DNA from: a virus
Taxonomy: Duplodnaviria > Heunggongvirae > Uroviricota > Caudoviricetes
Strand: one strand, 5' to 3'
Virus record (IMG/VR): IMGVR_UViG_2537562015_000005
Location: 1-27,033 of that record
Length of the DNA: 27,033 nt
Part shown: piece by piece, positions 880 to 27,033 of the stretch
How the letters are laid out: the number at the start of each line of letters is the position of its first letter
Numbering within the stretch: the first letter of the stretch is position 1
Made by a program: the position numbers and the translations under genes
The notes under the pieces: model-generated
Told to the model about the DNA's origin: nothing
The model's input: the letters and a program-made list of their open reading frames with translations, nothing else
Databases searched by the model: none

Positions 880-2065
880 ATGAGTGAAACTCGTTTTCAT
901 GGTGCCCGTGTTACGGAAAATACCGACCTGGTAACAGCGATTAACGATGTTGATTCCAGCGTTATCGGTATCGTGGCAACGGCGGATGATGCGGACGCGA
1001 AGCTGTTCCCGCTGAACAAGCCCACACTGCTGACCCGCGTCAATGACGTGCTGGGAAAATGCGGGAACAACGGGGACGCTTTATCGTGCGCTTAAGGCCA
1101 TCGCAGACCAGGTGAGCACAAAGGTGATCGTCGTTCGCGTGGCTGAACACAAAGAAGAAGACGGAAAAACGCAGGATCAACTGGTTATCGGTGGTTCTGA
1201 ATCTGACGGCAGCTATACGGGGATGTATGCGCTGCTTGTTGCAGAGCAGGATGAAAGCATCGGATACCGTCCGCGTATTCTGGCCGCGCCGGAGCTGGAC
1301 ACGGAGGCGGTAACAAAATCCCTGTGCGTGATTGCGGGTAAACTGCGCGCGTTTGTGTATGCCTCATGTCACGGCTGTAACACGATGGCTGAGGCGATTA
1401 CCTACCGCCAGAAATTCAACGAACGTGAGGTGATGCTCTTATGGCCGGACTTCATCGCCTACAACCCGAAAAGTGGCAAAAACGAAACGTTCCCCGCGCC
1501 TGCCTATGCGTGCGGCCTTCGTGCGTACATTGACCATGAGCAGGGTTGGCACAAATCGCTGTCCAACGTTCCGGTTAAAAATGTGCTGGGGATGTCCAGG
1601 CATGTGTTCTGGTCGTTGCAGGCCGAAGACAGTGATGCCAACAGCCTCAACAACAAAGAAATCACGACCATTATTCGTCGCAACGGGTTCCGCTTCTGGG
1701 GCAACCGCACACCGGAAACGAACGCCTACATCTTTGAGGTGTATACCCGAACCGCACAGGTGCTGGCTGATTCAATTGCGGAAGCGCAGTTTGAAACCAT
1801 CGATAGTCCACTGACGCCTGCGAACGTGAAGGATGTTATCAGTGCCATCAGGGCAAAACTGGATTCACTGGTGACTGCCGGGAAACTGATTGGGGCGTCG
1901 TGCTGGTATGACGTGGTGGATAACAGCACCACGAATTTACGTCAGGGGCGTGTGCATATTCGCTACAAATATACGCCCGTTCCTCCGCTGGAAGACATGG
2001 AGCTTTACCAGTCGTTTACTGATGAATTCTTTGGTCCCGCATTTGCGGTGCTGGGAGGTGCCTGA
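880..2065 (+). pseudogene. FI: P2-like tail sheath protein FI, frame-disrupted: 880..1095 and 1043..2065 are the same gene in two frames
   Basis: Both ORFs match P2 FI colinearly (MSETRFHGARV...FPLNKPTLLTRVNDVLGK then AGTTGTLYRALKAIADQV...WGNRT...YKYTPVPPLE). The frame switches at GGA AAA T GCG (extra nucleotide near 1060). The 1043..2065 ORF alone would give an N-terminally truncated sheath. Confidence 0.85.
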
Positions 2066-2577
2066 TGGCTGTACCAAAACATCTTCGCTTTTTTACGCTG
2101 TTTGTGGATGGTGAAAACGAAGTGGGTAAGGTGACGTCCGTCACCCTGCCTAAACTGACGCGCAAAACCGACAGCTACCGGGGTGGTGGCATGATGGGTG
2201 CGGTAAGTATTGATCTCGGTCTGGACGACTCCGCGCTTGATGCGAGCTTTGTCATGGGGGGCGCAGTTCGTGAGCTGTTCCTTAAGTATGGCGGCACGAT
2301 TGACGGCACGCTACTGCGTTTTGCGGGTGAATACTACACCGATGCAGAAAGCGACCTGTATGAAGTCGAAATGCGCGGACGCGTGACGGAAATTGATATG
2401 GGGGAAGCCAAACAGGGCGAAGCCACATCACACACTTACGCCATTAAAAACACCTACTACAAGCTGAGTGTTAACGATCGTCCGTTGTGGGAGATTGACC
2501 TGCTGAACTTCATTTACCGGAAGGACGGCAAGGACATTGTGCCCGATCGCATCCGTTCCGCGCTTGGGCTTGGCTGA
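2065..2577 (+). CDS. FII: P2-like tail tube protein FII
   Basis: 170 aa; start overlaps the FI stop. Matches P2 FII (LPKLTRK..YRGGGM..DLGLDD..LRFAGEY..EVEMRGR..EIDMGE). Confidence 0.85.
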   Translation: MAVPKHLRFFTLFVDGENEVGKVTSVTLPKLTRKTDSYRGGGMMGAVSIDLGLDDSALDASFVMGGAVRELFLKYGGTIDGTLLRFAGEYYTDAESDLYEVEMRGRVTEIDMGEAKQGEATSHTYAIKNTYYKLSVNDRPLWEIDLLNFIYRKDGKDIVPDRIRSALGLG

Positions 2578-2631
2578 TAAGTAATATGCAGGCGGCGCAG
2601 TGCGTCGCCTCTGACTGAAAGGAGTTTCCTG

Positions 2632-2997
2632 ATGAAAGAGACGAAAAACATCGATACCGAAAACACGGTAGTTGCTGACACTGTGAAAGAAACCAGTGAG
2701 CGTGGCGTAAAACTTACCCAACCAATTGAGCGAGGCGGCGAAAAAATCACGTATGTGGAGATCACCGGGGCTATTGAGCAGGCTGGATCTCTGCGAGATT
2801 TGTCGCTGTCTGATGTGCTGAATCTGAAAGCGGAATCCATGTTTACGCTGCTGTCACGAGTGACATCACCGCGACTGGATGAAGTGACGATCAAAAAAAT
2901 GGCATCCCGTGACTTTATTCAGTTATGTGTGGTTGCCGTAAATTTTTTGAGCGGTGCGGACTCTGGCGGGAAGAACGAACAGGCGACGGAAGCCTGA
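2632..2997 (+). CDS. E: P2-like tail assembly chaperone gpE
   Basis: 121 aa; position between tube and tape measure; contains the T TTT TTG slippery heptamer near its 3' end. Confidence 0.8.
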   Translation: MKETKNIDTENTVVADTVKETSERGVKLTQPIERGGEKITYVEITGAIEQAGSLRDLSLSDVLNLKAESMFTLLSRVTSPRLDEVTIKKMASRDFIQLCVVAVNFLSGADSGGKNEQATEA

Positions 2998-3161
2998 TCA
3001 CGGTTGTGTGCTTTGAGCACATAGAAGACTTTGTGGCAGATATTGCCGTTATTTTTAACTGGTCGCCCGCCGAAATCTTCATGATGACGCCCGGCGAAGT
3101 GGTTAGCTGGCGTGAGCGGGCGGCACTTCGCAGCGGGAATGCAGACAATGAAGACTCTTGA
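2632..3161 (+). CDS. E': gpE+E' fusion made by programmed -1 frameshift (join 2632..2948 with 2949..3161 in the -1 frame)
   Basis: Slippery TTTTTTG at 2943..2949. The -1 frame continues as ERCGLWREERTGDGSLITVVCFEHIEDF...WRERAALRSGNADNEDS and stops at 3161, overlapping the T start, as in the P2 E/E' arrangement. Confidence 0.7.
2943..2949 (+). other. Programmed -1 ribosomal frameshift slippery site (T_TTT_TTG) of the gpE/E' pair
   Basis: Heptamer read directly; frames on either side verified by hand translation. Confidence 0.7.
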
Positions 3162-5955
3162 TATCCGGGTCGCTTTCAGCGCCGTTGACAGGCTGACCCA
3201 GCCTGCCGAAAACGCCCGCCGCCTGATGGGGCAGTTTGGTGACTCCATCCAGCGAACGCAGGGGGCGATCAAAAATCTCGAGCGTCAGGCGCGTTCATTT
3301 GAGCGCGCCCGCGACGCTGTCAGTAAAGCGGATGCGGGTATCGTGAAAGCACGACGCCAGCTTAACGCCCTTAATCAGTTACAACGCACGGGTACAGTGC
3401 TCAGCGAAAAACAACAAAAGCTGATGCAGCAGTTAAGCACCCGGCTTGAACGCCTGAATGAATCGCGCACGCGGGAAATTCAGAAAATGCGGGAGCTTGG
3501 CGGAGAGCTGAAACGCCACGGCATTTCCCTGACAGGCAGCGATAACACCATCCAGCAGGCCATCAGACGCACCGAACAGTACAACAATCAGCTTGAACGC
3601 GAACGGCAGGCGCTTGCGCGTGTAACGCGGGCGCGTGAGCGGTATTCGCGCGCGCAGGAAACAGCGGGAAAACTGAAAACAGGTGGTGCACTGGCAATTG
3701 GTGCGGCAGCGGCGGGCGGCTATGCTGCCGGGCGTTTTTTGCAGCCTGCGATCGGGTTCGGGAAAGAGATGTCCCGCGTTCAGGCACTGACGCGAATCGA
3801 CCAGAACAGCCCGCAGTTTAAGGCGCTGCGTGAGCAGGCGTTAAAACTTGGCTCTGAAACGCAGTTCACCGCAGGCGATGCCGCCAGTGGGCAGGCATTT
3901 CTGGCAATGGCTGGCTTCACACCGCAGGCCATTCAGGCTGCGCTTCCCGGCGTGCTGAGCATGGCAACGGCTGGCGGTATGGACCTTGGCGAGACGGCAG
4001 ATATTGGCTCAAATATCCTGACGCAGTTCGGCCTCTCCGCTGACCAGATGGACCGGGTCGGTGACACGCTTACAGCAGTGTTTACCCGTACTAACACTGA
4101 CCTTCGCGCACTGGGCGAAACCATGAAATATGCAGGTCCGGTGGCGGGTAAGCTGGGAATATCGCTGGAGCAGGCCGCAGCGATGGCGGGCGTGCTGGCG
4201 AATATGGGTATCAGAGGGAGTGATGCCGGGACGGCAATGCGTGCCAGCCTGGCTCGTCTGGCATCACCGCCAAAGGCGGCAGCAGAAGCGCTGAAAGAGC
4301 TGGGTGTGTCCGTCTCTGATGCGAACGGCAAAATGCGCCCGATGGAAGATGTGCTGGCCGACCTTTATAAAGCCACCCGTAAATACGGGGAAGTTGACCG
4401 GGTATCGTTCTTTAAGGACATTGCCGGGGAAGAGGCTTTCACGTCGTTTATGGCTCTCGTTGATGCGGCGGGTGACGGCTCCCTGCCCAAACTGAGAAAA
4501 GAACTTGAGGGCGCACGCGGTGAGGCTGAACGCACGGCAAAGGTTATGGCCAATAACCTTGATGGCGACCTGAAATCACTCGGCAGTGCATGGGAAGGGC
4601 TGCGTATCCGCATTGCAGATCTGATTGATGGTCCGCTGCGTTCTGTCACGCAGTGGCTCACGCGGGTGGTCTCAAAGGTGACGGCGCTGGCACAGGCCCA
4701 TCCGGTACTGACGCGCCAGTTACTGATAGCAGGCGGTGCGCTGCTGGCAATGACTGCAACGGTTGGCTCGTTGTCGCTGGTTATTGGAGTGCTTCACGGG
4801 AAGCTGGCCACGTTGCGTCTTGGTTTTTCTCTCCTGACCGGATCAATGAATGCTGTCAGGCTCCTGCCAGCACTATGGGGAATGGTGACGGGTTCCGTTT
4901 CGTTACTGGGGGGCGCTATCGGGGCGCTGTTCAGCCCGGTCGGATTGATTGCTGCTGCGTTTGTGGCTGCGGCAGTTCTCATCTGGAAATACTGGGAACC
5001 CATCAAGGCGTTTTATGCCGGGGTGTTCAGCGGGATTATGGAGCGGCTGGCCCCGTTACGCGAAACCTTTGAACGGTTTGGTCCTGTTTTTGACGCAATC
5101 GGAAGCGGGATAAGTCAGGTGTTTAACTGGTTTAAATCGTTGCTGTCACCGATGGAGTCCAGCAAGGAAACGCTGGATAAATGTACCAGTGCTGGCGAGA
5201 TATTCGGTAACGTTCTTGGCGGTGCGTTACAGCTTGTTCTGACGCCCGCAAAAATGTTGCTGGATACGCTGGCGTGGATACTTGAAAAACTCGGTGTGCT
5301 TCCGGATGAAGCGGAAAGGGCGAGAAAGAAAATCGAAGACGCACAGCGTGCGGCCATTCTTCAGGACAAGGTTGCTCTGTTTCAGGGAGACATTGCGAAA
5401 ATCAATCCGCCGAAGTCTGCGGAAAATGGCAATGGCACCGGAGGTGATAAACCCAAAGACAATAAACCGCTCACAGACAGCAATACCGGTACGCTACGCA
5501 GACTCAGCAAAATTGCTGATAACACAGGTAAGCTGGTTGATGAGACGAAAAAACGTATTGGCCCCGGCGATATTGTCTTTAAGAACCTGCCCCGCGCACT
5601 TGCCGTTCGTGGGGAGTGGCAGGAGCGGAAGATTGTGCAGGTCAGTAAGCCTGCCCCCGCAATTAATATCACACCCGTGGTCCCGGCTCCGCTGCCTCCG
5701 GCGCTGGTCCCTGTTGTTGCGGCCAACTCCCGCCCGGTGGCGGAGGCCATACGATCTCCAGTGGCATCAGTTCCTGTAACTTCCCGTAACCGGGAGCCTG
5801 TTGCCTCCGGATTTGGTGGTGAAATTCATGTTCATCTGCATAACGTTGTTACGCAGAATCCCCGCGAACTGGCGAAACTGGTCGGTGAAATGGTCAGGGC
5901 AGAAATGGAACGGCGCGCCCGTGCCGGGCGTGGCAGTTTTTACGATAAAGATTGA
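3112..5955 (+). CDS. T: P2-like tail tape measure protein gpT
   Basis: 947 aa; coiled-coil-rich N-terminus, central hydrophobic/glycine-rich stretch (LLIAGGALLAMTATVGSLSLVIG...), location after E/E'. The track start at 3112 is GTG; ATG at 3139 or 3148 are alternative starts. Confidence 0.85.
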   Translation: MSGRHFAAGMQTMKTLDIRVAFSAVDRLTQPAENARRLMGQFGDSIQRTQGAIKNLERQARSFERARDAVSKADAGIVKARRQLNALNQLQRTGTVLSEKQQKLMQQLSTRLERLNESRTREIQKMRELGGELKRHGISLTGSDNTIQQAIRRTEQYNNQLERERQALARVTRARERYSRAQETAGKLKTGGALAIGAAAAGGYAAGRFLQPAIGFGKEMSRVQALTRIDQNSPQFKALREQALKLGSETQFTAGDAASGQAFLAMAGFTPQAIQAALPGVLSMATAGGMDLGETADIGSNILTQFGLSADQMDRVGDTLTAVFTRTNTDLRALGETMKYAGPVAGKLGISLEQAAAMAGVLANMGIRGSDAGTAMRASLARLASPPKAAAEALKELGVSVSDANGKMRPMEDVLADLYKATRKYGEVDRVSFFKDIAGEEAFTSFMALVDAAGDGSLPKLRKELEGARGEAERTAKVMANNLDGDLKSLGSAWEGLRIRIADLIDGPLRSVTQWLTRVVSKVTALAQAHPVLTRQLLIAGGALLAMTATVGSLSLVIGVLHGKLATLRLGFSLLTGSMNAVRLLPALWGMVTGSVSLLGGAIGALFSPVGLIAAAFVAAAVLIWKYWEPIKAFYAGVFSGIMERLAPLRETFERFGPVFDAIGSGISQVFNWFKSLLSPMESSKETLDKCTSAGEIFGNVLGGALQLVLTPAKMLLDTLAWILEKLGVLPDEAERARKKIEDAQRAAILQDKVALFQGDIAKINPPKSAENGNGTGGDKPKDNKPLTDSNTGTLRRLSKIADNTGKLVDETKKRIGPGDIVFKNLPRALAVRGEWQERKIVQVSKPAPAINITPVVPAPLPPALVPVVAANSRPVAEAIRSPVASVPVTSRNREPVASGFGGEIHVHLHNVVTQNPRELAKLVGEMVRAEMERRARAGRGSFYDKD

Positions 5956-5961
5956 GGAGTC

Positions 5962-6456
5962 ATGGCCATGATGATGATCTACGGCATGTTTGTTTTTGAG
6001 CTGCGCACGCTGCCGCATCAGCAGTTACAGCAAAACAAAAGCTGGCGGCATGTGAAAAATGAACGCGTTAACCGTTCAGCAAGCTGGCAGTATATCGGTG
6101 CAGGTGATGATCGCATCGTTCTTTCTGGTGTGCTTTATCCTGAAATTACAGGTGGCGAAGTGTCGCTGTCGCTGCTGACCACGCAGGCGTATACAGGACG
6201 ACCCTGGCCTTTGATTGATGGCGTCGGGCAGATTTACGGCATGTATGTCCTGACCGGAACGAACACGACCCGTTCCGAGTTTGATCGCTACGGTAAGGCG
6301 AAAAAGATAGAATTTTCACTGACCCTTGAACGCTGTGATGAGGATTTGCGGGAGCGCCTGCAATCCTCATCGTTCAGCGATATGCTGTCCGGCTTCAAAG
6401 ATAAAGTGACATCATCCCTTAACAGCGCGGCCAGTTCAGTTAAAGGGCTGTTCTGA
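5962..6456 (+). CDS. U: P2-like tail protein gpU
   Basis: 164 aa directly after T; resembles P2 gpU N-terminus (MMMIYGMFVFELRTLPHQQLQ...). Confidence 0.75.
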   Translation: MAMMMIYGMFVFELRTLPHQQLQQNKSWRHVKNERVNRSASWQYIGAGDDRIVLSGVLYPEITGGEVSLSLLTTQAYTGRPWPLIDGVGQIYGMYVLTGTNTTRSEFDRYGKAKKIEFSLTLERCDEDLRERLQSSSFSDMLSGFKDKVTSSLNSAASSVKGLF

Positions 6457-6618: not shown

Positions 6619-6843
6619 ATGCTGAATAATAGAGATATGAATATTAATGAACTTAAAGACTGTATTCACTATGAAGTAATCGGTAGCGAGCGTCCTTTCT
6701 CCTGGCGAAAGGCAATTGTTCGCGCAATAAAACATAGAAGACTTCGTTATTTATTTTGGTGGCGCATAGCCAAATACCTTTTTGATAAAGGCGGATACTG
6801 CCGGAAGATTGCGGGGAAAATAGAACGTTTCATTCTTGGGTAG
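6619..6843 (+). pseudogene. N-terminal fragment of a putative hexapeptide-family (CysE/WbbJ-like) acetyltransferase, cut by IS1
   Basis: AT-rich 74-aa ORF with a helical N-terminal pattern (...LRYLFWWRIAKYLFDKGG..RKIAGKIERFILG) like the N-terminus of sugar O-acetyltransferases. Its stop codon TAG (6841..6843) lies inside the IS1 terminus (IS1 starts 6839). Family assignment is tentative. Confidence 0.3.
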
Positions 6844-6853
6844 TGACTCCAAC

Positions 6854-7357
6854 TTACTGATAGTGTTTTATGTTCAGATAATGCCCGATGACCTTGTCAT
6901 GCAGCTCCACCGATTTTGAGAACGACAGTGACTTCCGTCCCAGCCTTGCCAGATGTTGTCTCAGATTCAGATTATGTCGCTCAATGCGCTGAGTGTAACG
7001 CTTGCTGATAACGTGCAGCTTTCCCTTCAGGCGTGATTCATACAGCGGCCAGCCATCCGTCATCCATACCACGACCTCAAAGGCCGACAGCAGGCTCAGA
7101 AGACGCGCCAGTGTGGCCAGAGTGCGTTCACCGAAAACGTGCGCCACAACTGTCCTCCGTATCCTGTCATACGCGTAAAACAGCCAGCGCTGACGTGATT
7201 TAGCACCGACGTAGCCCCACTGTTCGTCCATTTCCGCGCAGACAATCACATCACTGCCCGGTTGTATGCGCGAGGTTACCGACTGCGGCCTGAGTTTTTT
7301 AAGTGACGTAAAACCGTGTTGAGGCCAACGCCCATAATGCGGGCAGTTGCCCGGCAT
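6854..7357 (-). CDS. insB: IS1 transposase InsB (expressed as InsAB' by frameshift)
   Basis: 167 aa [18 protein letters not shown]...; canonical IS1 insB. Confidence 0.9.
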
Positions 7358-7551
7358 CCAACGCCATTCATGGCCATATCAATGATTTTCTGGTGCGTAC
7401 CGGGTTGAGAAGCGGTGTAAGTGAACTGCAGTTGCCATGTTTTACGGCAGTGAGAGCAGAGATAGCGCTGATGTCCGGCGGTGCTTTTGCCGTTACGCAC
7501 CACCCCGTCAGTAGCTGAACAGGAGGGACAGCTGATAGAAACAGAAGCCAC
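7276..7551 (-). CDS. insA: IS1 InsA
   Basis: 91 aa [39 protein letters not shown]...; canonical IS1 insA. Confidence 0.9.
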
Positions 7552-7760
7552 TGGAGCACCTCAAAAACACCATCATACACTAAATCAGTAAGTTGGCAGC
7601 ATCACCCAGGTTTGGCTCGAATAAAAGGTAAAACATTTGGTGCGTTACCGTTAGATAACAATAATCCATTTTGGCTAGATAATGATGCCGCCCCAGGGTT
7701 AAAAAAGAGCCTGGGGGATGTCACTAAGGCTGCATTTGATTTATGTGATAAGTAACTAAA

Positions 7761-8762
7761 ATGTCGGTTCGTAAGATTCCATCAGGTAAATGGCTTTGCG
7801 AATGTTATCCCTACGGGGCATCGGGAAAACGCATTCGTAAACAGTTTGCGACAAAAAGTGAGGCGCTCTCTTATGAGCGCCGTTTAATGAATAGTAGAGT
7901 TGGAGACGAGTTTCAAGATGGTTCTGGTCCTCGTCTTTCTGAGTTGATTGCTCGTTGGTTTGAGATGTACGGTAAAACCTTGTCCTCTGGTGCAGAGCGC
8001 AAAGTCAAACTTGAGGCGATTTGTTCCAGGCTGGGAGATCCATTTGCTTCTCAGTTTGACAAAAATATGTTTGCCACTTATCGGGAAAGAAGGTTATCAG
8101 GAGAGTGGAATCCCAAGGGGAAGAAAAAACTTAGTGAAGCAACCGTTAATCGCGAGCAGTCATATCTACATGCTGTTTTTGCCGAACTGAAGCGCCTTGG
8201 GGAGTGGTCTGGTGAAAACCCCCTGACTGGTATTCGCAAGTTTCGTGAGGAAGAAAAGGAACTGGCGTTTCTGTATGTAGATGAGATTGAACGCCTTCTG
8301 ATTGCGTGTGATGAGTCACGGAATAAAGATTTGGGGGTTGTTGTCCGTATTGGGCTTGCGACTGGTGCTCGGTGGAGTGAAGCAGAAGGGTTAAAGCAAT
8401 CTCAAGTACTGCCCGGTCGAATCACATTTGTTAAAACTAAAGGAAAGAAGAACCGCACTGTACCGATTTCACCTCAATTGCAGGCTATGCTTCCCAAAAA
8501 ACGAGGAGCGCTATTTTCACCATGTTATGAGGCTTTTGACGCTGCAATTAAGAGAGCGAAGATCGAGCTTCCTGATGGGCAATTAACTCATGTGCTACGT
8601 CACACGTTTGCCAGTCATTTTATGATGCGGGGCGGAAATATTCTTGTGTTGCAAAAAATACTGGGGCATAGCGATATAAAAATGACTATGCGTTATGCGC
8701 ATTTTGCTCCAGGTCATTTAGAGGCTGCTGTTGAATTGAACCCTTTTGACAATAGAGGGTAA
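7761..8762 (+). CDS. int: P2-type phage integrase (tyrosine recombinase)
   Basis: 333 aa; C-terminal catalytic region ...GARWSEAEGL...TFVKTKGKKNRTVPIS...HVLRHTFASHFMMRGGNILVLQKILGHSDIKMTMRYAHFAPGHLEAAVELNP closely parallels P2 Int as recalled. Sits next to a tRNA 3' fragment. Confidence 0.9.
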   Translation: MSVRKIPSGKWLCECYPYGASGKRIRKQFATKSEALSYERRLMNSRVGDEFQDGSGPRLSELIARWFEMYGKTLSSGAERKVKLEAICSRLGDPFASQFDKNMFATYRERRLSGEWNPKGKKKLSEATVNREQSYLHAVFAELKRLGEWSGENPLTGIRKFREEEKELAFLYVDEIERLLIACDESRNKDLGVVVRIGLATGARWSEAEGLKQSQVLPGRITFVKTKGKKNRTVPISPQLQAMLPKKRGALFSPCYEAFDAAIKRAKIELPDGQLTHVLRHTFASHFMMRGGNILVLQKILGHSDIKMTMRYAHFAPGHLEAAVELNPFDNRG

Positions 8763-8868
8763 AAAGTGGCGATAAAAAGTGACAATAGATTCAAATGGCG
8801 TTGTATAGAGCCATTTTCAAAGTTAATAAAATCATAAGGTTATGATTTATAAATGGTGGTTGATAGTT

Positions 8869-8923
8869 TTTAAAATCCCTCGGCGTTCGCGCTGTGCGGG
8901 TTCAAGTCCCGCTCCGGGTACCA
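8869..8923 (+). other. tRNA-Leu(UAA) 3' fragment (anticodon loop to CCA), attachment-site remnant
   Basis: TTTAAAATCCCTCGGCGTTCGCGCTGTGCGGGTTCAAGTCCCGCTCCGGGTACCA matches the 3' 55 nt of E. coli leuZ as recalled. The upstream sequence cannot form the acceptor or D arm, so this is not a complete tRNA. Confidence 0.75.
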
Positions 8924-8963
8924 TGGGAAAGACAAGAATAATCAAAGCAATAAGCAGTGTCGT

Positions 8964-8990
8964 GAAACCACCTACGGGTGGTTTTTTTGT
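8964..8990. terminator. Rho-independent terminator-like hairpin, possibly bidirectional
   Basis: AAACCACC-TACG-GGTGGTTT followed by a T-run, with an A-run before the stem. Lies between the tRNA fragment and the 3' end of the minus-strand gene 9024..9905. Confidence 0.55.
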
Positions 8991-9023
8991 GCCTGAAATT
9001 CACGCCCTGTGCATATCCTGTGC

Positions 9024-9905
9024 TCACGGGGTGCAATGAGCCGCAATCTCCAGCCTGGCAATGCCGAATCGAACGTGTCGCCTCCAGCATAGAGAACCAG
9101 GCCGCTTTGCCTGTTTTCCGGTACTCTTCCGGGAAGGGTGGCCTGCTGAGCAAGTTGTAATGCTCTGGCCGCCCTTAGTACAAAGTTGCTTAATTCGTGC
9201 AATCACCTCATCTCTGTACTTCTGGTGTCCGCGCATAGCCCTTGGATGGGCAATTCTGAAACAGATTGTATTACCTGTTTTGAACTCCCACAGCTTCCCC
9301 GGAATGACTGAAGAAGTCTCATAACCGCCCAGCTCAGTAAGCACCTGTTTAATGATGTAGTCTGTTCTCCGGGCTCCGGATGCAAAGATCATGAAATCAG
9401 GCTCAAGGTGTTTAATTTGTACCGCCAGCAGCTTCAGCGAGGCTAATATGACTTCCTGCACTTCATTTTGAGGGCGATTGAGAGGGGTCAGTCCGTCGTA
9501 ATCCCACGCCAGTAGATTGGCATACACGATAGCCTGAGGAGGAATATTAAGCTCCCGGGCCAGCCTGAAATGATATTGCGTGAAGCGGCTACGTGATTTG
9601 AGGTTGGTGGTGCCATCATTTTGTACCGGAAGATGTTTCCTGTAACGATCTACAGCTTCTTCAACCACCTGCCCGATGGTGACGTCAGGCATAAGTCCCA
9701 ACACCCGTGATATCGTATTCTTACCATTCAGCGTATTCCAGCCTGCGGTTTCACGTCTAACCAGCATGATTTTTACCGGTGAATGCCAGTATTCTTCAAA
9801 CGGCACGGGTAAAAAGACGCCTGAGTATTTATCTTCATTCAGGTTAAATGACTGGGCGTCAACTTCCTGTAATATCCGTTTGTACGCGTCTAATAGCCTT
9901 TCCAT
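9024..9905 (-). CDS. Hypothetical protein; C-terminal ~60 aa may not be native
   Basis: 293-aa ORF with an RBS; no family recognised. The last ~60 codons (about 9024..9200) are GC-rich and low-complexity (..GGQSITTCSAGHPSRKSTGKQAKRPGSLCWRRH..), unlike the rest of the gene. Confidence 0.5.
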   Translation of the reverse strand: MERLLDAYKRILQEVDAQSFNLNEDKYSGVFLPVPFEEYWHSPVKIMLVRRETAGWNTLNGKNTISRVLGLMPDVTIGQVVEEAVDRYRKHLPVQNDGTTNLKSRSRFTQYHFRLARELNIPPQAIVYANLLAWDYDGLTPLNRPQNEVQEVILASLKLLAVQIKHLEPDFMIFASGARRTDYIIKQVLTELGGYETSSVIPGKLWEFKTGNTICFRIAHPRAMRGHQKYRDEVIARIKQLCTKGGQSITTCSAGHPSRKSTGKQAKRPGSLCWRRHVRFGIARLEIAAHCTP

Positions 9906-9985
9906 TCTTCAATCCTGCCCCGTAATAAAAACACCTTCAGATATATATTATTTTCATGATATCAATCAGATATATGAGGATAAAT

Positions 9986-11185
9986 ATGCAAAAATCCTTC
10001 CGATTCACCAATTCATCCATCAAAGCCCTTCCGGCAAACACAGATACCCGATCTACAGAGCTTGAGGTATCCGATACTGAGGTCATTGGCCTCAAATGCC
10101 TCTCAGGTCGAACGGGTAACAAACGTTTCCTCCTGCGCTACACATTCCACGGTACCAAAAAAAGTATCAGTATTGGCAGATTCCCTGAAATTGATGTGGG
10201 GACAGCCCGTCAGATAGCTCGTCGTCACAAGGAGGCGATTGCACTGGGAAATGACCCTAAGGCAGAACGCGATAATTATCGTGCTATGCCAACGCTTAGT
10301 GAGTTTTTTCACCAGACCTATGTTCCGTTCATCAAACGCCATAAAAAGTCCTGGGATAAGGATGTTCAGCGTTTCACGCAATACATTGAACCTTGTCTGG
10401 GGAAGATACGTTACTGTGACCTTCGGGCCCGGGAAATCCAGCAGGTGCTTTTCGACATGCTTGAGGGTCGTATTCACGGGCAGCAATATGCGCCGTCTAC
10501 CTGTAACAGAGCCCTTGCTATTCTGAAAACGATGGGGCGTTATGCGTTGCGACAGGATGTGCTGGAAAAGAATGAAGCCGATAAGATCCCTTTACTGAAA
10601 GAGAATAATCAGCGGACGCGCTTTTTTGATGCTGATGAGATCAGGCGCATTCTTGACGCTGCTACCCAATATCCCAACAAAGCTGCCGGGGGATTGATAG
10701 CCATGTTGTTGTTAACCGGTACACGCAAAACAGAAATGCTTAATGTCAGGCATGAACATATCGACCGGGCCAATCGTACTCTGTTCATTCCTTATACAAA
10801 AAATGGTCGCAGTCGGACGGTATATCTAAGCGATGCCGCATTATCGATTATTGATGCTATCCCACGAGTTGGCAGTAATCCGTATCTGTTCGCCATTAAG
10901 GATAATGGCAAACCGATATCGGAACCCCGATGGGCATATGAAAAAATACTGGCACAGTGCGGTATAGACAAGAATGAAGTCTGTTTTCACACCACACGTC
11001 ATTCTGTTGCCTCTTTACTGGTTTCGAGTGGTCAATTCAGCCTGTATGACGTTAAAGCCCAACTGGCGCATGCCAGTATTCAGAGTACAGAACGTTACGC
11101 GAAATTAACACCGGAACGTATGCGTCAGACAGGGCAGGGAGTGACTGACCTGCTTCTGAATACTGCGGCTACGAAGCAGATGTGA
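9986..11185 (+). CDS. int: P4-type integrase (tyrosine recombinase)
   Basis: ATG at 9986 preceded by GAGGA (the track ORF starts upstream at 9956 in the same frame). N-terminal arm-binding-type region plus C-terminal catalytic region (..LLLTGTRKTEM..HTTRHSVASLL..ERYAKL). Confidence 0.85.
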   Translation: MQKSFRFTNSSIKALPANTDTRSTELEVSDTEVIGLKCLSGRTGNKRFLLRYTFHGTKKSISIGRFPEIDVGTARQIARRHKEAIALGNDPKAERDNYRAMPTLSEFFHQTYVPFIKRHKKSWDKDVQRFTQYIEPCLGKIRYCDLRAREIQQVLFDMLEGRIHGQQYAPSTCNRALAILKTMGRYALRQDVLEKNEADKIPLLKENNQRTRFFDADEIRRILDAATQYPNKAAGGLIAMLLLTGTRKTEMLNVRHEHIDRANRTLFIPYTKNGRSRTVYLSDAALSIIDAIPRVGSNPYLFAIKDNGKPISEPRWAYEKILAQCGIDKNEVCFHTTRHSVASLLVSSGQFSLYDVKAQLAHASIQSTERYAKLTPERMRQTGQGVTDLLLNTAATKQM

Positions 11186-11215
11186 CTACTTTTTAGCAAA
11201 CTATAAATATGGAGA

Positions 11216-11458
11216 ATGAGGATGCATTTAAAATGCCCACAGTGTGGCAGTTGTAATACATTGATAAGTTCAGCAGGAAAACTGCCATCGATAACCGATA
11301 ATAAACACTCTGGGTATATTAGCCTGGAGTTTTTACCTGAAATACTGAAAGAAATTATTAAGGCTATTAAAAAACTATTTGGATTCCTTGAACAGTGTGA
11401 AAGGAATAATGCTCCAGTGCTTATCTGTATGGACTGTGGATATTATGAAAGAATTTAA
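11216..11458 (+). CDS. Small zinc-ribbon protein, hypothetical
   Basis: 80 aa with paired Cys motifs (CPQCGSC ... CMDCGYY); followed by a strong terminator. Confidence 0.45.
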   Translation: MRMHLKCPQCGSCNTLISSAGKLPSITDNKHSGYISLEFLPEILKEIIKAIKKLFGFLEQCERNNAPVLICMDCGYYERI

Positions 11459-11503
11459 ATAGAAAACCAATAACTGTAAATAATAGTTATGCGGATGTAT
11501 AAA

Positions 11504-11537
11504 AACCTCGATACGTTAATCGTATCGGGTTTTTTGT
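11504..11537 (+). terminator. Rho-independent terminator
   Basis: ACCTCGATACG-TTAAT-CGTATCGGGT followed by TTTTTT. Confidence 0.6.
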
Positions 11538-11553
11538 TTATGAGGATTATTCA

Positions 11554-11925
11554 ATGAAATTTGTCTCGAACTGGCAAGACCTGCCGTCGCTCCTTCTTCC
11601 GGAGTCAGTAATGAGTCTGTTGAAAACAGAGCTGGTACTCCCATTTGAAGATGAATACTCTGCAATGAGTTTCTGGGATGAAGTCGGGGTGACATTAATA
11701 TATGTCGAGCCCGATGATGTACCTGAAGATATTAAAGCGCAGGTATTAAATGTGATTCATCAGTTAATTGCAAATCCAGAATTTGTAGTCCGTCTGACAG
11801 ATGACTATTACCTGATGCTTTCTGTTACGGAAGATAACGGGAACGGTATTTATCTGTTATTTCACCCCGATTGCCCTCTGAAGGGTATTGATTTATTAAT
11901 TTCTATGGCCGAATCACGCTATTAA
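11554..11925 (+). CDS. Hypothetical acidic protein
   Basis: 123-aa ORF; no family recognised. Confidence 0.5.
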   Translation: MKFVSNWQDLPSLLLPESVMSLLKTELVLPFEDEYSAMSFWDEVGVTLIYVEPDDVPEDIKAQVLNVIHQLIANPEFVVRLTDDYYLMLSVTEDNGNGIYLLFHPDCPLKGIDLLISMAESRY

Positions 11926-11950
11926 ACACAAGCAAAACCAGGAACGCAAA

Positions 11951-12484
11951 ATGAGTAAATCAAAATTAGTTAAAAATAATGTTGAGTCAGTTTCGAAGGA
12001 GATTAAAAATGAGGCAGAGGTTATTCATGAAAATCTCAGTGCAGATGAACAAACATTATCTGATGTAAAAGACTATCAGTTGCTCATTGAAACAGGCCAG
12101 GCAGAAAAAATCAGTCCTAAGGCAAGTGGTATGCTGACATGGCAACTGGCGATATCAGAGGTGGATAATGAACTTTATCTTCGTCTGGTGGCAAATGGCT
12201 GTGGAGGGTTGTTCTCTAAGGACTGGATCTCACTTTCAAAGATTGCAACTGTTCTGGAAACACAACCTGCTACCGGCTTCTCATCCGGAGTATTCAGGCC
12301 GCTATTCAAAGGGGCAAGCGCCAACAATGCAGGTTTTCTGGCTGCTGTTTTACGCTCCCCGGATATATGTCTGCTGGAGGCACATCCAGAGAAGTTATTT
12401 ACTCATGTATTATACCCGGACTGGAGGGAGCGGTTGAATAAACTTAATACGATCAGTAGCCAGGAAAAGATTACAGAGGATTAA
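11951..12484 (+). CDS. Hypothetical protein
   Basis: 177-aa ORF; no family recognised. Confidence 0.5.
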   Translation: MSKSKLVKNNVESVSKEIKNEAEVIHENLSADEQTLSDVKDYQLLIETGQAEKISPKASGMLTWQLAISEVDNELYLRLVANGCGGLFSKDWISLSKIATVLETQPATGFSSGVFRPLFKGASANNAGFLAAVLRSPDICLLEAHPEKLFTHVLYPDWRERLNKLNTISSQEKITED

Positions 12485-12566
12485 TTTATTTCCTGCACTG
12501 TTATACAACCAGAAATCACCACACACCACTATTTACTTTCTAAAGGAAAATGGTAGTGACTCCAAC

Positions 12567-13070
12567 TTACTGATAGTGTTTTATGTTCAGATAATGCCCG
12601 ATGACCTTGTCATGCAGCTCCACCGATTTTGAGAACGACAGTGACTTCCGTCCCAGCCTTGCCAGATGTTGTCTCAGATTCAGATTATGTCGCTCAATGC
12701 GCTGAGTGTAACGCTTGCTGATAACGTGCAGCTTTCCCTTCAGGCGTGATTCATACAGCGGCCAGCCATCCGTCATCCATACCACGACCTCAAAGGCCGA
12801 CAGCAGGCTCAGAAGACGCGCCAGTGTGGCCAGAGTGCGTTCACCGAAAACGTGCGCCACAACTGTCCTCCGTATCCTGTCATACGCGTAAAACAGCCAG
12901 CGCTGACGTGATTTAGCACCGACGTAGCCCCACTGTTCGTCCATTTCCGCGCAGACAATCACATCACTGCCCGGTTGTATGCGCGAGGTTACCGACTGCG
13001 GCCTGAGTTTTTTAAGTGACGTAAAACCGTGTTGAGGCCAACGCCCATAATGCGGGCAGTTGCCCGGCAT
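12567..13070 (-). CDS. insB: IS1 transposase InsB
   Basis: Identical to 6854..7357. Confidence 0.9.
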
Positions 13071-13264
13071 CCAACGCCATTCATGGCCATATCAATGATT
13101 TTCTGGTGCGTACCGGGTTGAGAAGCGGTGTAAGTGAACTGCAGTTGCCATGTTTTACGGCAGTGAGAGCAGAGATAGCGCTGATGTCCGGCGGTGCTTT
13201 TGCCGTTACGCACCACCCCGTCAGTAGCTGAACAGGAGGGACAGCTGATAGAAACAGAAGCCAC
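12989..13264 (-). CDS. insA: IS1 InsA
   Basis: Identical to 7276..7551. Confidence 0.9.
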
Positions 13265-13314
13265 TGGAGCACCTCAAAAACACCATCATACACTAAATCA
13301 GTAAGTTGGCAGCA

Positions 13315-14139
13315 TCACCCAGAGTATACAATGCTTAAAATTATGGCGTTACTTATATTATTAATTGCAGTTGGGTAAATATGCAGGTTGCTTATCAATT
13401 CTGAAAGGCAAAGTAAAACACCAGTGATGTTAGGTTTTCTGCCAGATATTGTGGTGGTGTTGAAAATGTGCCGATTCTTACGACTTATATTGACAAATTT
13501 ATGAGTGCAGAACTCTATATGTTCGACGATTTTATCTTGACTATTTTTAATGTATTTTGAAATGTTAGTGATTCGTCCATTCAACGTTAGCTCATCAAGT
13601 AATATGTCATTTTTAATACTGCGAATTTCATCGCAATGTTTAGATTCAAAAACTATCTCATGTAATACATAACTCGACGTATTGCGGGGTGACGCTGATA
13701 TGTAATCTAAAATAGAAGGCTCGATTTTGATTTTTTGTTTGTATTTTTTAATGCACTGTTTGATTATTTTTTGTAGAGTATTTGAGATGTGTTTTTTATA
13801 TTCTTTTAGAAAATCATGCTCTAAAAAGAGTGAGGAGAAGATCAACTGCTGGCGAGATAATTTAATCTCAGGCTTGATCAATTTAATCCGGAAAACTCTT
13901 CCCTCCAACTCATAGCTGAACATGGAAGATAAGTCATAGTGGGGTGATAAATGTTCGAGTAACGACATTCGTGTATTCATTAGCCGCTTGAATTTATGGT
14001 CAGCATACATAAGTATTTTTTTTATTTGCTCATCGTAAAGTGGGCCGATAACGCAATTAGCAATACTCATACTATCCGGAGACCTCCAGTCAACAGGGGA
14101 ATCACATTGACGGCCACCATTACAATCAAAGGGTATCAA
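13315..14139 (-). CDS. AT-rich hypothetical protein (K/I/N-rich), probably truncated at the 3' end by IS1; likely start near 14071 (MSIANCVIG...)
   Basis: Visibly AT-rich ORF, foreign to its neighbours. Its stop codon (13315..13317) lies inside the IS1 terminus (IS1 ends 13319). Divergent from hsdM. No family recognised. Confidence 0.5.
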   Translation of the reverse strand: MIPFDCNGGRQCDSPVDWRSPDSMSIANCVIGPLYDEQIKKILMYADHKFKRLMNTRMSLLEHLSPHYDLSSMFSYELEGRVFRIKLIKPEIKLSRQQLIFSSLFLEHDFLKEYKKHISNTLQKIIKQCIKKYKQKIKIEPSILDYISASPRNTSSYVLHEIVFESKHCDEIRSIKNDILLDELTLNGRITNISKYIKNSQDKIVEHIEFCTHKFVNISRKNRHIFNTTTISGRKPNITGVLLCLSELISNLHIYPTAINNISNAIILSIVYSG

Positions 14140-14442: not shown

Positions 14443-16029
14443 ATGAACGACAAAATCAGTCAGGACACGATCAACAAAGCCCTGTGGGCCGCGTGTGATA
14501 CGTTCCGTGGCACCATCAGTGCTGATACCTATAAAGACTTTATCCTTACCATGCTGTTCCTTAAGTACATTTCGGATGTCTGGCAGGATCATTACGATGA
14601 ATATAAAAAACAGTATGGTGATGCACCAGAACTCATTGAAGCCATGATGTCGAATGAACGTTTCGTATTGCCGAAAAGCGCCAGTTTCTATGCGCTGTAT
14701 GAACGTCGTCATGAACCGGGCAATGGTGAGCGCATCGACCAGGCTCTGCATGCGATTGAAGAAGCTAATGGCACCAAACTGAAAGACGCCGGGAAAAGCG
14801 TGTTCCAGGATATTTCGTTTAACACCGATCGCCTAGGTGAAGAAAAACAGAAGAACACCATCCTGCGTCAGCTGCTGGAAGACTTTGCCGGTCAAGATCT
14901 TAACCTGAAGCCGAGCCGTGTCGGTACGCTGGACGTTATCGGTAATGCCTACGAATATCTGATCAAAAACTTTGCTGCCAGCGGTGGGCAGAAAGCCGGG
15001 GAATTCTATACCCCACCAGAAGTTTCGGACCTGATTGCAGAACTGCTCGATCCGCAACCGGGTGATACCATCTGCGATCCGGCCTGTGGTTCCGGTTCAT
15101 TATTGATGAAGTGTGGGCGTAAAATTGTCTCCGGGCATGATAGTCGTAACTATGCATTGTTCGGTCAGGAAGCGATCGGTTCTACGTGGTCGCTGGCGAA
15201 AATGAATATGTTCCTGCACGGGGAAGACAACCATAAAATCGAGTGGGGCGATACCATTCGTAACCCGAAGCTGCTCGATAAAAATGGCGACCTGATGCTG
15301 TTTGATATCGTGACCGCTAACCCACCGTTCAGCCTCGATAAGTGGGGCCATGACGAGGCCGAGAACGATAAGTTTGGCCGTTTTCGTCGCGGTGTACCGC
15401 CGAAGACTAAAGGCGATTACGCCTTTATCTCACATATGATCGAAACCCTGAAACCAGGAACGGGGCGTATGGGCGTAGTTGTGCCACACGGTGTGCTGTT
15501 CCGTGGTTCCAGCGAAGGTAAAATTCGCCAGAAACTGATCGACGAAAATCTGCTGGATGCCGTCATTGGCTTGCCGGAAAAACTGTTCTACGGTACAGGT
15601 ATTCCTGCTGCGATTCTGATTTTCAAAAAACAGAAAGTGGATGACAAGGTACTGTTTATCGATGCCAGCCGTGAATATAAGGCGGGCAAAAACCAGAACC
15701 AGCTCAGCGCAGAAAATATCCAGAAGATCGTTAACACCTATCGTGAAGGCGATAACGTCGAGAAATACGCCTATCTCGCCAGCCTGAAAGAGATTCAGGA
15801 CAACGACTATAACCTTAATATTCCACGCTATGTCGATACCTTTGAGGAAGAAGACGAAATTGATTTGCTGGCGGTACGTGCTGAGCGTGAGCAACTGAAA
15901 GCGGAACTGGTAAAGCTGGAAATGGAGATGGCTGGGTATTTGAAAGAATTAGGGTACGATTGGCAGAAAGATTCCGAGGGCACACAAAAAATAAACTCTG
16001 CGGAAGTGAATTTTGGAGATTTTGAATGA
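14443..16029 (+). CDS. hsdM: Type I restriction-modification N6-adenine DNA methyltransferase HsdM
   Basis: 528 aa; AdoMet motif DPACGSGSLL and catalytic NPPF; N-terminal HsdM-type helical domain. Confidence 0.95.
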   Translation: MNDKISQDTINKALWAACDTFRGTISADTYKDFILTMLFLKYISDVWQDHYDEYKKQYGDAPELIEAMMSNERFVLPKSASFYALYERRHEPGNGERIDQALHAIEEANGTKLKDAGKSVFQDISFNTDRLGEEKQKNTILRQLLEDFAGQDLNLKPSRVGTLDVIGNAYEYLIKNFAASGGQKAGEFYTPPEVSDLIAELLDPQPGDTICDPACGSGSLLMKCGRKIVSGHDSRNYALFGQEAIGSTWSLAKMNMFLHGEDNHKIEWGDTIRNPKLLDKNGDLMLFDIVTANPPFSLDKWGHDEAENDKFGRFRRGVPPKTKGDYAFISHMIETLKPGTGRMGVVVPHGVLFRGSSEGKIRQKLIDENLLDAVIGLPEKLFYGTGIPAAILIFKKQKVDDKVLFIDASREYKAGKNQNQLSAENIQKIVNTYREGDNVEKYAYLASLKEIQDNDYNLNIPRYVDTFEEEDEIDLLAVRAEREQLKAELVKLEMEMAGYLKELGYDWQKDSEGTQKINSAEVNFGDFE

Positions 16030-17123
16030 CTCTTAAATGGGAAAAGGTTCGTTTAGGAGATGTCGCAGAATTACAACGTGGTTTTGATCTACCCAGTACT
16101 AAGCGTATTGAAGGGGAGATTCCTATTGTTTCATCAAGTGGAATAACAGGCTTCCATGTTGAAGCGAAGGCAAAGGCTCCAGGAGTTGTCACTGGGCGAT
16201 ATGGTTCGATTGGTGATGTTTTTTATTTAGAACAGGATTTTTGGCCATTAAATACATCCTTATGGGTTAAAGATTTTCATGGAAATGACGAAAAATTTAT
16301 CTACTTTCTGTTGAGTAACTTTGACTTTAAAAAATTTAGTGACAAAACAGGTGTGCCCGGTGTTAACCGTAATGACTTGCATGCAGTGAATGTATTACTG
16401 CCGCCACTCTCGGAGCAAAAGAAAATCGCCCAAATCCTGTCAACCTGGGATAAAGCTATTTCGGTGACGGAAAAGCTTCTCACCAACAGCCAGCAGCAGA
16501 AAAAAGCCCTGATGCAGCAATTACTTACCGGGAAGAAACGCTTGCTGGATGAGAGGGGGGGCAGGTATGGTGGTGAGTGGCATCGTGCTGAGCTTGGCGC
16601 AGTTTTAGATTATATGCAGCCAACCCCTTATCTAGTTGATTCTACTGATTATAATGATAGTTACTCAATCCCAGTTCTTACAGCAGGTAAAAGTTTCATT
16701 CTTGGCTATACCAATGAAGAACATGGTATTTATCATGCACCTTTGCCTGCCATAATTTTTGATGATTTCACGACTGATAGTAAGTTCGTCGATTTTGAAT
16801 TCAAAGCAAAATCCAGTGCGATGAAAATTCTTACAGCCAAAAAAGGAGTATCTGCAAAGTATATTTTTGAAGCAATGCAAATGTTGAAATTTAAAATAGG
16901 TGGGCATCAGCGGCATTGGATTTCAATTTATTCCAACTTAGTAATACCTATTCCAGATGCCAAGGAACAACAAAAAATCGCCGCCGTCCTTTCCGCTGCA
17001 GACGCCGAAATCTCCACACTGGAGAAAAAACTCGCCTGCCTGAAAGACGAGAAAAAAGCCCTGATGCAGCAGTTACTGACCGGAAAACGTCGGGTGAAAA
17101 TCGATGAGGCTGTTGCTGCATGA
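16026..17123 (+). CDS. hsdS: Type I R-M specificity subunit HsdS
   Basis: 365 aa with two target-recognition domains separated by conserved helical repeats (QQKKALMQQLLTGKKRL and EKKALMQQLLTGKRRV). ATGA overlap with hsdM. TRD2 is visibly more AT-rich. Confidence 0.9.
   Translation: MTLKWEKVRLGDVAELQRGFDLPSTKRIEGEIPIVSSSGITGFHVEAKAKAPGVVTGRYGSIGDVFYLEQDFWPLNTSLWVKDFHGNDEKFIYFLLSNFDFKKFSDKTGVPGVNRNDLHAVNVLLPPLSEQKKIAQILSTWDKAISVTEKLLTNSQQQKKALMQQLLTGKKRLLDERGGRYGGEWHRAELGAVLDYMQPTPYLVDSTDYNDSYSIPVLTAGKSFILGYTNEEHGIYHAPLPAIIFDDFTTDSKFVDFEFKAKSSAMKILTAKKGVSAKYIFEAMQMLKFKIGGHQRHWISIYSNLVIPIPDAKEQQKIAAVLSAADAEISTLEKKLACLKDEKKALMQQLLTGKRRVKIDEAVAA
16500..16540 (+). repeat. hsdS conserved central repeat; direct repeat partner at 17052..17089
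   Basis: AAAAAAGCCCTGATGCAGCA(A/G)TTACT(T/G)ACCGG occurs twice within hsdS, about 550 bp apart. Confidence 0.8.
17052..17089 (+). repeat. hsdS conserved C-terminal repeat; partner of 16500..16540
   Basis: See partner repeat. Confidence 0.8.
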
Positions 17124-17803
17124 AACTGACGAAAAGTGGTCCACTGACTGACCGGGAAATCGACTGGCTGGAAGAGGTGTTGATGAAATACGGCAATGAT
17201 GACTCTGTGCTCTGTTTCTCTGAGCTGGATGGCTTTCTGACGGCGATTGTCTCTGGCCCGAATACGATTTCCCCTAATACCTGGCTCAGTGCTATCTGGG
17301 GGCGAGGTGATTACCACCCTCGCTGGACCACTGAAAAAGAGATGACGCGTTTTGTGGGGCTGTGTTTTCAGCATATGAACGATATCGCTGGCTGCCTGTA
17401 TGAGGCCCCTGAACAGTTTGAACCGATTTTCAATGAGCGTGAGGTAAAGGGGGAAAAATATACCATTGTGGAAGAGTGGTGTTTTGGTTATATGAAAGGA
17501 AAGTCACTGGATGACTGGTCTGGTCTTCCCGGTGAGTTACGGCCTTCTCTGGAAGTGATCGCTCTTCATGGCGTGGAGAAGAATTTTCCTGTACTTGAGA
17601 AAATGACCGGAGAGCAGTTTGAGAAAAGTATTTCCCTTATTCAGCCTGCTGCACTGGCACTTTATCAGTACTGGTTGTCAGTGAGAATGTCAGAGGCATC
17701 ATCCCGGCCTGTTCCAGTGAAGGGGGCAGAAAACATGCCCGGGCGAAATGACCCGTGTCCGTGTGGCAGCGGTAAAAAATTTAAGAAGTGCTGTCTGCAT
17801 TGA
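17120..17803 (+). CDS. YecA-like protein (UPF0149 domain + C-terminal SEC-C zinc-binding motif) embedded in the hsd operon
   Basis: 227 aa ending GRNDPCPCGSGKKFKKCCLH (SEC-C motif as in the SecA C-terminus and YecA). N-terminal region resembles YecA. Start overlaps the hsdS stop (ATGA). Confidence 0.8.
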   Translation: MKLTKSGPLTDREIDWLEEVLMKYGNDDSVLCFSELDGFLTAIVSGPNTISPNTWLSAIWGRGDYHPRWTTEKEMTRFVGLCFQHMNDIAGCLYEAPEQFEPIFNEREVKGEKYTIVEEWCFGYMKGKSLDDWSGLPGELRPSLEVIALHGVEKNFPVLEKMTGEQFEKSISLIQPAALALYQYWLSVRMSEASSRPVPVKGAENMPGRNDPCPCGSGKKFKKCCLH

Positions 17804-17852
17804 TGAATCTTCATGTGACCAGTAGCGAGTAGCGCCAGAAAGAAAAGGATTA

Positions 17853-21923: not shown

Positions 21924-22525
<602 letters not shown>

Positions 22526-26223: not shown

Positions 26224-27033
<810 letters not shown>

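Follow-up and report, generated by a model that had tools for sequence, protein, structure and literature searches.

A leuZ fragment between two integrase genes marks the junction of a P2-like prophage and a defence island in tandem in an Escherichia coli chromosome

A stretch of DNA of 27,033 nt, filed as a Caudoviricetes record (IMGVR_UViG_2537562015_000005) and called the window here, carries two integrase genes on either side of a 3' fragment of leuZ, the gene of tRNA-Leu(UAA). An earlier note had read this region as nested or tandem islands at one attachment (att) site. The features on which the reading depends are as follows.

7761..8762, plus strand: prophage integrase gene, intact, 333 aa (Pfam Int_N, 5e-32; Phage_integrase, 2.5e-22)
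8766..8773 and 8795..8802, plus strand: RTGGCGDT motifs, candidate arm-type sites of the prophage integrase
8869..8923, plus strand: leuZ 3' fragment (copy 2, the middle one of three repeats), with the prophage integrase gene before it and the island after it
8924..8988, plus strand: 65-nt copy of the 3'ETS-leuZ spacer with its terminator hairpin, followed by 7 nt equal to the native flank, to 8995
9005..9026, plus strand: CCCTGTGC and CCTGTGCTCA motifs, weak candidates for arm-type sites of the island integrase
9024..9905, minus strand: decayed UDG-like gene typical of pipolins, a pseudogene in RefSeq, which fills the gap of about 1 kb between the fragment and the island integrase gene
9986..11185, plus strand: island integrase gene, intact, 399 aa (Pfam Arm-DNA-bind_3, 3e-14; Phage_integrase, 4e-23)

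The 55 nt at 8869..8923 match E. coli leuZ at every position (55/55); they begin with the first T of its anticodon loop and end with the terminal CCA, and the 5' 32 nt of the gene are absent. ARAGORN found no tRNA gene in the window, and a permissive Rfam scan of it gave no tRNA match. The DNA upstream of 8869 is that of the prophage, with no acceptor or D arm. Thus, the piece is an att remnant and not a gene, as the earlier note had proposed.

Over its full length, the window corresponds to the chromosome of the enterotoxigenic E. coli (ETEC) E1739 (NZ_CM180506.1), from which it differs by 9 substitutions and 1 indel. All these differences lie at 180..5726, in the D, sheath and tape-measure region of the prophage, and the sequences are identical from 5727 to the end. 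The indel is an extra A at 1066, by which the sheath gene is split into the open reading frames (ORFs) 880..1095 and 1043..2065. The site is the one between pgsA-glyW-cysT-leuZ and yecA. E1739 has an intact glyW-cysT-leuZ operon about 2.1 kb before the window start, followed by the hok/gef, ogr and D genes of the prophage and then by the tail module that opens the window. On the other side, the island runs on for about 20 kb to the right of the window, up to a third att copy beside yecA.

Three direct copies of the leuZ 3' part are thus present in E1739, one at every unit boundary. Copy 1 belongs to the intact leuZ to the left of the window and is followed by the ogr/D end of the prophage. Copy 2 is the fragment in the window. 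Copy 3 is a further fragment, with the island end before it and the native spacer and yecA after it, as in K-12. Counted from start to start, copies 1 and 2 are 10,954 bp apart and copies 2 and 3 are 28,959 bp apart. Each unit is flanked by its own repeat pair, and the arrangement is tandem and not nested. The earlier note had proposed a search downstream for a second core or the intact tRNA gene, and its reading would have fallen had no other core repeat lain nearby. Two more copies were found; the third fragment does lie downstream, beside yecA, whereas the intact leuZ lies upstream. The repeated block is longer than the 55 nt and comprises about 125 nt, through 3'ETS-leuZ and its terminator; the copy in the window extends to 8995.

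The fragment at 8869..8923 serves two units: for the prophage it is the att junction distal to the tRNA gene, and for the island it is the proximal one. Therefore, the prophage integrase gene reads toward the fragment, ending 106 nt before it, and the island integrase gene begins about 1 kb beyond it (1,063 nt after). Both identity blocks begin at the anticodon loop, which points to the loop as the likely overlap region of the crossover. I read the locus as a tandem array of two unrelated elements, both of which have the leuZ 3' half as their attachment site, with the island having entered first and decay by IS1 having come later; the probability of this reading is put at about 0.9.

A defective prophage of the Xuanwuvirus (P2-like) type, 10,954 bp long and with an intact integrase gene, makes up the first unit. 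The amino acid identity of its integrase is 96% to that of phage 520873, 52-56% to those of SopEPhi, PSP3 and ENT90 (56% for SopEPhi) and about 39% to Peduovirus integrases, and its accession in E1739, WP_001300279.1, is that of the O157:H7 integrase. Along with this related integrase, the unit has a P2-type D, ogr, sheath, tube, E, T and GpU, by which it is P2-like. The P2-type integrase that the earlier note saw reading toward the fragment was therefore borne out by its Pfam domains and its P2-like relatives. The full set of a complete genome (capsid, terminase, baseplate, replication, Cox and repressor) is not present in these 10,954 bp, as against 37.6 kb in the phage 520873 record, which also includes the flanking yecA and an IS100. 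Since 14,042 bp are missing in comparison with FORC_031, the prophage is a defective remnant. The block from sheath to U runs opposite to D and ogr. Phage 520873 is arranged likewise, and a rearrangement of the tail module was rejected because the layout is native to this Xuanwuvirus phage. The remaining prophage features in the window are these.

1..722, minus strand: 3' part of the late control gene D (RefSeq annotation of E1739; the window begins inside the gene)
880..6456, plus strand: P2-like tail module with sheath, tube, gpE/E', tape measure and gpU
3148..5955, plus strand: tape measure gene
5968..6456, plus strand: gpU gene (Phage_P2_GpU, 1.5e-38)
6637..6837, plus strand: fragment of an acetyltransferase gene cut by IS1, full length in FORC_031
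7609..7755, plus strand: 3' fragment of a prophage DUF2511 gene

Three further RTGGCGDT motifs lie just after copy 1 (locus L003, 10554, 10565 and 10576) at an exact spacing of 11 bp. All five motifs have one orientation and they occur on both prophage att arms. It is likely that they are arm-type binding sites of the prophage integrase.

The second unit is a pipolin remnant that has lost piPolB and keeps its integrase and defence modules. The assignment follows from the IntSXT/UDG-like module, which is shared with the piPolB-bearing NCCP 13717, and from the deletion of core genes here. NCCP 13717 and the window are 97.6% identical over 4,945 bp, a segment that includes the prophage integrase gene, the fragment, the UDG-like gene and the island integrase gene; the amino acid identity is 99% for IntSXT and 95% for the UDG-like protein. 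After the integrase module, NCCP 13717 continues with DUF2787, DUF726, a WYL regulator, piPolB (an 866-aa type-B polymerase), an HTH_17 excisionase-like gene and a second tyrosine recombinase gene, and past this recombinase with the same type I restriction-modification (R-M), DUF262 pair and Hhe cargo. The DUF2787 and WYL core genes, which are present in NCCP 13717 and FORC_031, are deleted here, and tblastn with the pipolin core genes of NCCP 13717 found no trace of them in the E1739 loci.

The island integrase (its ORF has a longer reading from 9956) has an N-terminal arm-type domain, Arm-DNA-bind_3, formerly DUF4102, and a C-terminal tyrosine recombinase domain, with the catalytic R, HxxR, H and Y motifs visible in the alignment. 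The two integrases of the window share just 25% identity, across the catalytic domain. With P4 Int, the island integrase aligns over its whole length at 23% identity (357 aa, E 2e-8). Of the earlier description of a P4-type integrase about 1 kb beyond the fragment, the position stood, and the label P4-type stood by domain architecture only; the integrase is a distant member of the family, and the island is not a P4 satellite. None of the P4 genes alpha, sid, psu, delta, epsilon and cI is annotated between att copies 2 and 3, and the ORFs of the island without a known function gave no P4-gene match in Pfam, PHROGs or PADLOC. A helper-satellite pair of the P2/P4 kind was rejected on account of these missing genes and the distance from P4 Int.

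The UDG-like family measures about 246 aa in most homologues. The copy in the window has lost its stop codon and reads 293 aa, and it has an Arg where all six other homologues in the alignment have Gly (MLVGRETxGWN). Homologues range from Enterobacterales to Marinobacter and Pseudoalteromonas, and some sources call them uracil-DNA-glycosylase-like; a "UDG" of pipolins has been described (PMC7385651). The gene gave no match in Pfam, NCBIfam, PADLOC or a PDB sequence search. The idea that it belongs to a conserved integrase module was not supported, because homologues in Pectobacterium and Stutzerimonas have no annotated integrase within about 4 kb. The neighbours there include nuclease-domain and IS (insertion sequence) genes, and the Pectobacterium homologue adjoins genes with Mrr-type and PD-(D/E)XK nuclease domains. 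A defence role of the UDG-like protein is conceivable. In PHROGs, full-length and near-identical families, uninformative as to function, were found for the UDG-like ORF and three orphan ORFs behind the integrase gene (9024..12484; e.g., phrog_29550, 293/293). This suggests that the prophage prediction from which these families were drawn did not stop at the att fragment but extended into the pipolin, with the result that island genes are filed as phage genes.

The CCCTGTGC and CCTGTGCTCA motifs occur again, in unchanged order, some 115-130 nt upstream of att copy 3 (locus L005, minus strand). The pattern on both island att arms is CCCTGTGC, a gap of 4-5 nt, CTGTGCTCA and then CGCAATCT further on. 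It may represent integrase arm sites or the trace of an older att arm.

As had been proposed, the R-M and DUF262 genes belong to the unit of the second integrase. This part of the island reads as follows.

11216..12484, plus strand: three orphan ORFs (80, 123 and 177 aa), found after the integrase gene in all related islands
13321..14139, minus strand: N-terminal 272 codons of the gene of a 410-aa hypothetical protein, cut by IS1 copy 2
14443..21892, plus strand: type I R-M cargo with hsdM, hsdS, a SEC-C/YecA-like gene, hsdR and an M48 peptidase gene
17120..17803: gene of the SEC-C/YecA-like protein, 227 aa, between hsdS and hsdR (PADLOC PDC-S12, 1e-100)
22547..26036, plus strand: genes of two DUF262 proteins, whose N-terminal domain resembles GmrSD, SspE and HEC-06
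26212..27033: N-terminal fragment of the Hhe defence gene, split by IS100 near its 5' end, from about 26551

With the M48 peptidase gene 3' of hsdR, the type I R-M operon is rich in accessory genes, and NCCP 13717 has an extra gene of a cold-shock-domain protein before hsdR. The far end of the island (locus L003, 38723..46417) holds IS3 fragments and a group II intron, and the right part is mostly debris of mobile elements.

The tandem state and the distribution of the two modules were counted in 5,426 complete E. coli genomes. All four states of the site were found: empty, island only, phage only, and tandem. The site is empty in K-12, which supplies the empty-site comparison that the earlier note had suggested. 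Island-only sites occur in 2011EL-1370-2 and at least 9 more genomes, which are 100% identical to the window from exactly 8869 onward and in which the tRNA-Leu is annotated. Phage-only sites are those of O157:H7 strain 9234 and the phage 520873 record, with yecA directly after the fragment in both. The tandem state, as in the window, was found in 20 of the genomes, including FORC_031 and H10407. The UDG-like and integrase module is present in 356 genomes and the prophage integrase in 525. A synthetic junction query for the reverse order (the island beside the intact tRNA gene and the phage distal to it) found 0 of the 5,426. Together with the three repeats, these states agree with the earlier proposal of successive integrations into one tRNA site.

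Sublocation rules for integration into tRNA and transfer-messenger RNA (tmRNA) genes were reportedly set out by Williams in 2002, and the usual reading of tandem arrays is that the newest unit adjoins the intact gene. In the proposed history, the attP of each element would carry leuZ from the anticodon loop to CCA, the 3'ETS-leuZ spacer and the terminator, about 125 nt in all. On the tRNA side, integration would then yield a complete operon again, and on the far side it would leave a dead 3' fragment; since the operon is restored and the target recreated, the site could be used again. First, a pipolin would have entered leuZ, bringing an IntSXT/P4-type integrase, a UDG-like gene and its defence cargo. 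A Xuanwuvirus-type P2-like myovirus would have entered the regenerated leuZ next, and its arrival would have pushed the tRNA-proximal junction of the island, by now a fragment, to 8869..8923. Finally, IS1-associated deletions stripped 14 kb from the prophage and 10.5 kb from the island. For both elements, the presumed agent of entry is integrase action at the leuZ repeats. The order of island first and phage second is more likely because only the intact gene gives a complete attB, because close relatives carry the island alone, and because the reverse order is never seen.

The best-surviving alternative, although a very unlikely one, is that the phage entered leuZ first and the island later entered the distal att fragment of the phage, in reverse order or nested. 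The final junctions and the spacer alleles would be the same in that case, and phage-only genomes are common, as the count of the integrase indicates. On the other hand, the anticodon stem of the distal fragment has no 5' arm, so that the fragment is not a complete attB. The island-only strains with their 100% identity from 8869 on are among close ETEC relatives, no genome has the reverse physical order, and the pipolin literature takes the prophage as the later co-integrant (PMC7385651). Several points weigh against the tandem reading with the island first. A phage-first history would end in an identical final sequence. The proposed arm sites are observations of pattern only, and the name P4-type is a label by domain architecture for a distant member of the family. 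The hallmark of pipolins is missing, as tblastn with the NCCP 13717 piPolB found no match in the window or the E1739 loci. The spacer hairpin was not picked up by a simple scan for consensus terminators.

The decay of both units is associated with copies of IS1.

6839..7606, minus strand: IS1 copy 1, 768 bp, with no target-site duplication
12552..13319, minus strand: IS1 copy 2, 100% identical to copy 1 and in direct orientation
21924..22299, plus strand: partial IS1, 376 nt, inverted with respect to the two full copies

IS1 copy 1 stands where FORC_031 has 14,042 bp of prophage, annotated with replication, regulatory and small DNA-binding genes; the phage 520873 equivalent of a gene in that stretch is annotated as a Cox-like excisionase. 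The deletion in the prophage took cox, the repressor, and the replication and head genes. NCCP 13717 still has a cox-like gene in its prophage as well as the excisionase-like gene of its island. IS1 copy 2 stands where NCCP 13717 has 10,538 bp, from DUF2787 through DUF726, WYL, piPolB and HTH_17 to the second recombinase. In FORC_031, piPolB was lost by another IS1 deletion with different end points, and the IS1-driven loss of the polymerase module appears to be recurrent. With cox lost from the prophage and the excisionase-like gene lost from the island, both elements are probably incapable of excision, which would lock the units in place and fix the defence cargo.

The two full IS1 copies also bracket 7607..12551, that is, both integrase genes and the att fragment, and an extremely unlikely explanation is that IS1 brought these together by rearrangement or as a composite transposon. 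The copies are identical and direct, and no matching flanks were found at either of them, so that neither has a target-site duplication. In contrast, the 4,945-bp segment from integrase to integrase is contiguous, free of IS1 and at the same site in FORC_031, H10407, NCCP 13717 and others, which shows that IS1 arrived later, and the IS1 copies coincide with deletions relative to these IS1-free strains. No plasmid carries the segment, and all tandem genomes examined have it at leuZ. The composite transposon or juxtaposition was rejected on the IS1-free relatives, the missing duplications and the missing plasmid copy.

Just as unlikely is the view that the first integrase is the island's own IntP2 and that the array is one element and not two. 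Gammaproteobacterial pipolins do commonly encode both IntSXT and IntP2 (PMC11551731). However, the first integrase gene lies outside the repeat pair of the island, its product shares 96% identity with the integrase of a Peduoviridae phage and has the same accession as the integrase of the island-free O157:H7 prophage, and it is just 25% identical, over 211 aa, to the second recombinase of NCCP 13717. The phage-only genomes refute this view. That the 55 nt belong to a missed full-length functional tRNA gene, for which there is the perfect 3' half and nothing more, is ruled out by the empty ARAGORN and Rfam results, the incomplete cloverleaf and the prophage DNA upstream of 8869.

The repeats carry more than tRNA sequence. 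The K-12 annotation assigns the 67 nt 3' of leuZ to 3'ETS-leuZ, a small regulatory RNA known to act as a sponge for RyhB (PMC6191717). This spacer is found in each of the three repeats, together with the terminator hairpin, which folds into a 9-bp stem followed by a T run. The spacers compared lie at 8924..8995 of the window, at 10469..10537 of locus L003, at 43561..43490 of locus L005 (minus strand) and at 2556..2626 of locus L016. The spacer of copy 1 is of the K-12 type as far as TTTTTTTGT, where phage DNA begins, and that of copy 3, next to yecA, is of the K-12 type and continues into the native flank. In contrast, the spacer in the window differs from that of K-12 in having C for T at +10, two A's fewer in an A run and A for T in the terminator loop. 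The GTGCCTG that follows is still that of the native flank, and island DNA begins at 8996. Salmonella enterica has this very variant as its native leuZ spacer. The three variant positions lie outside AAGCAAUAAGCAGUGUCGUG, the block complementary to RyhB, which is unchanged in every copy. The allele pattern agrees with crossovers upstream of the first variable position, and I infer that they took place inside the leuZ part of the repeat.

In the island-only strains, the Salmonella-type variant sits on the functional leuZ, so that these strains would express the Salmonella-type spacer from their tRNA operon. The pipolin may thus swap the functional spacer of its host for the Salmonella-type allele, and the phage would restore the E. 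coli-type allele. Several other phages carry the leuZ 3' part with the spacer, which is annotated as attP in mEp390. Both of the unrelated leuZ-targeting elements carry the complete 3'ETS-leuZ, which is beyond what the rebuilding of the tRNA needs. The two extra spacer copies in the array could be reached by read-through transcription, from the integrase gene or from the last genes of the island. It is unlikely that these element-borne copies are expressed and measurably alter the buffering of RyhB and RybB.

The arrangement itself is already known. Flament-Simon et al. 2020 (PMC7385651) described E. coli pipolins with three att repeats and an adjacent myovirus prophage at the Leu-tRNA gene in H10407, 2014EL-1346-6 and 99-3165, all of which are among the best matches of the window. 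Pipolins enter the Leu-tRNA gene of E. coli between pgsA and yecA, with IntSXT near the site and often with a UDG gene (PMC7385651, PMC11551731). Mateo-Caceres et al. 2024 (PMC11551731) reported IntP2-type prophages co-integrated beside pipolins and noted that deletions and ISs are often met with in the part from IntSXT to piPolB. The site is also used by a prophage in Shiga toxin-producing E. coli O121 (PMC8767318) and by an island in avian pathogenic E. coli O78 (PMC4313913). The window agrees with the three published arrays in the site, the three att repeats, the prophage integrase and the class of defence cargo, and its UDG-like and IntSXT module is 98-100% identical to theirs at the nucleotide level. 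Unlike them, it lacks piPolB, the excisionase-like gene, the second recombinase, DUF2787 and WYL, and its prophage is 14 kb shorter. With phage 520873 and the O157:H7 leuZ prophage it has in common the att fragment, the spacer, the tail layout and the integrase (96% identical and of the same accession, respectively). Those prophages abut yecA with no island, whereas the prophage of the window keeps just the D-tail-U block and the integrase gene.

P4 Int and the P4-like islands at leuX resemble the second unit in having arm-type and recombinase domains, a tRNA-Leu target and an integrase gene near the tRNA-proximal end. In contrast, the target here is leuZ and the identity block starts from the anticodon loop, while the annotated P4 core has 20 bp. 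Tandem accretion at tRNA and tmRNA genes, of which tandem SGI1 is an example among islands (PMC2297512), likewise regenerates the target, reuses the site and leaves repeats of the 3' part between the units. There is no difference in principle, except that the repeat here also holds 3'ETS-leuZ.

Thus, the window is a doubly decayed example of an arrangement published in 2020 for closely related strains. It serves as a worked example in which a scrap of tRNA sequence delimits two elements exactly, and by which the defence cargo (type I R-M, two DUF262 proteins and Hhe) is assigned to the pipolin-derived island. It also shows how excision functions can be lost from both neighbours, and the polymerase from the pipolin, through IS1, with the integrases and the cargo left fixed. 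For annotation, an island without piPolB is recognisable as a pipolin remnant by the IntSXT/UDG-like module and the att repeats. The thread of wider interest, with some novelty, is that elements at leuZ bring along a known regulatory RNA and exchange its alleles. If the element-borne copies were active, mobile elements at leuZ would tune the small RNA network of iron and envelope stress in their host.

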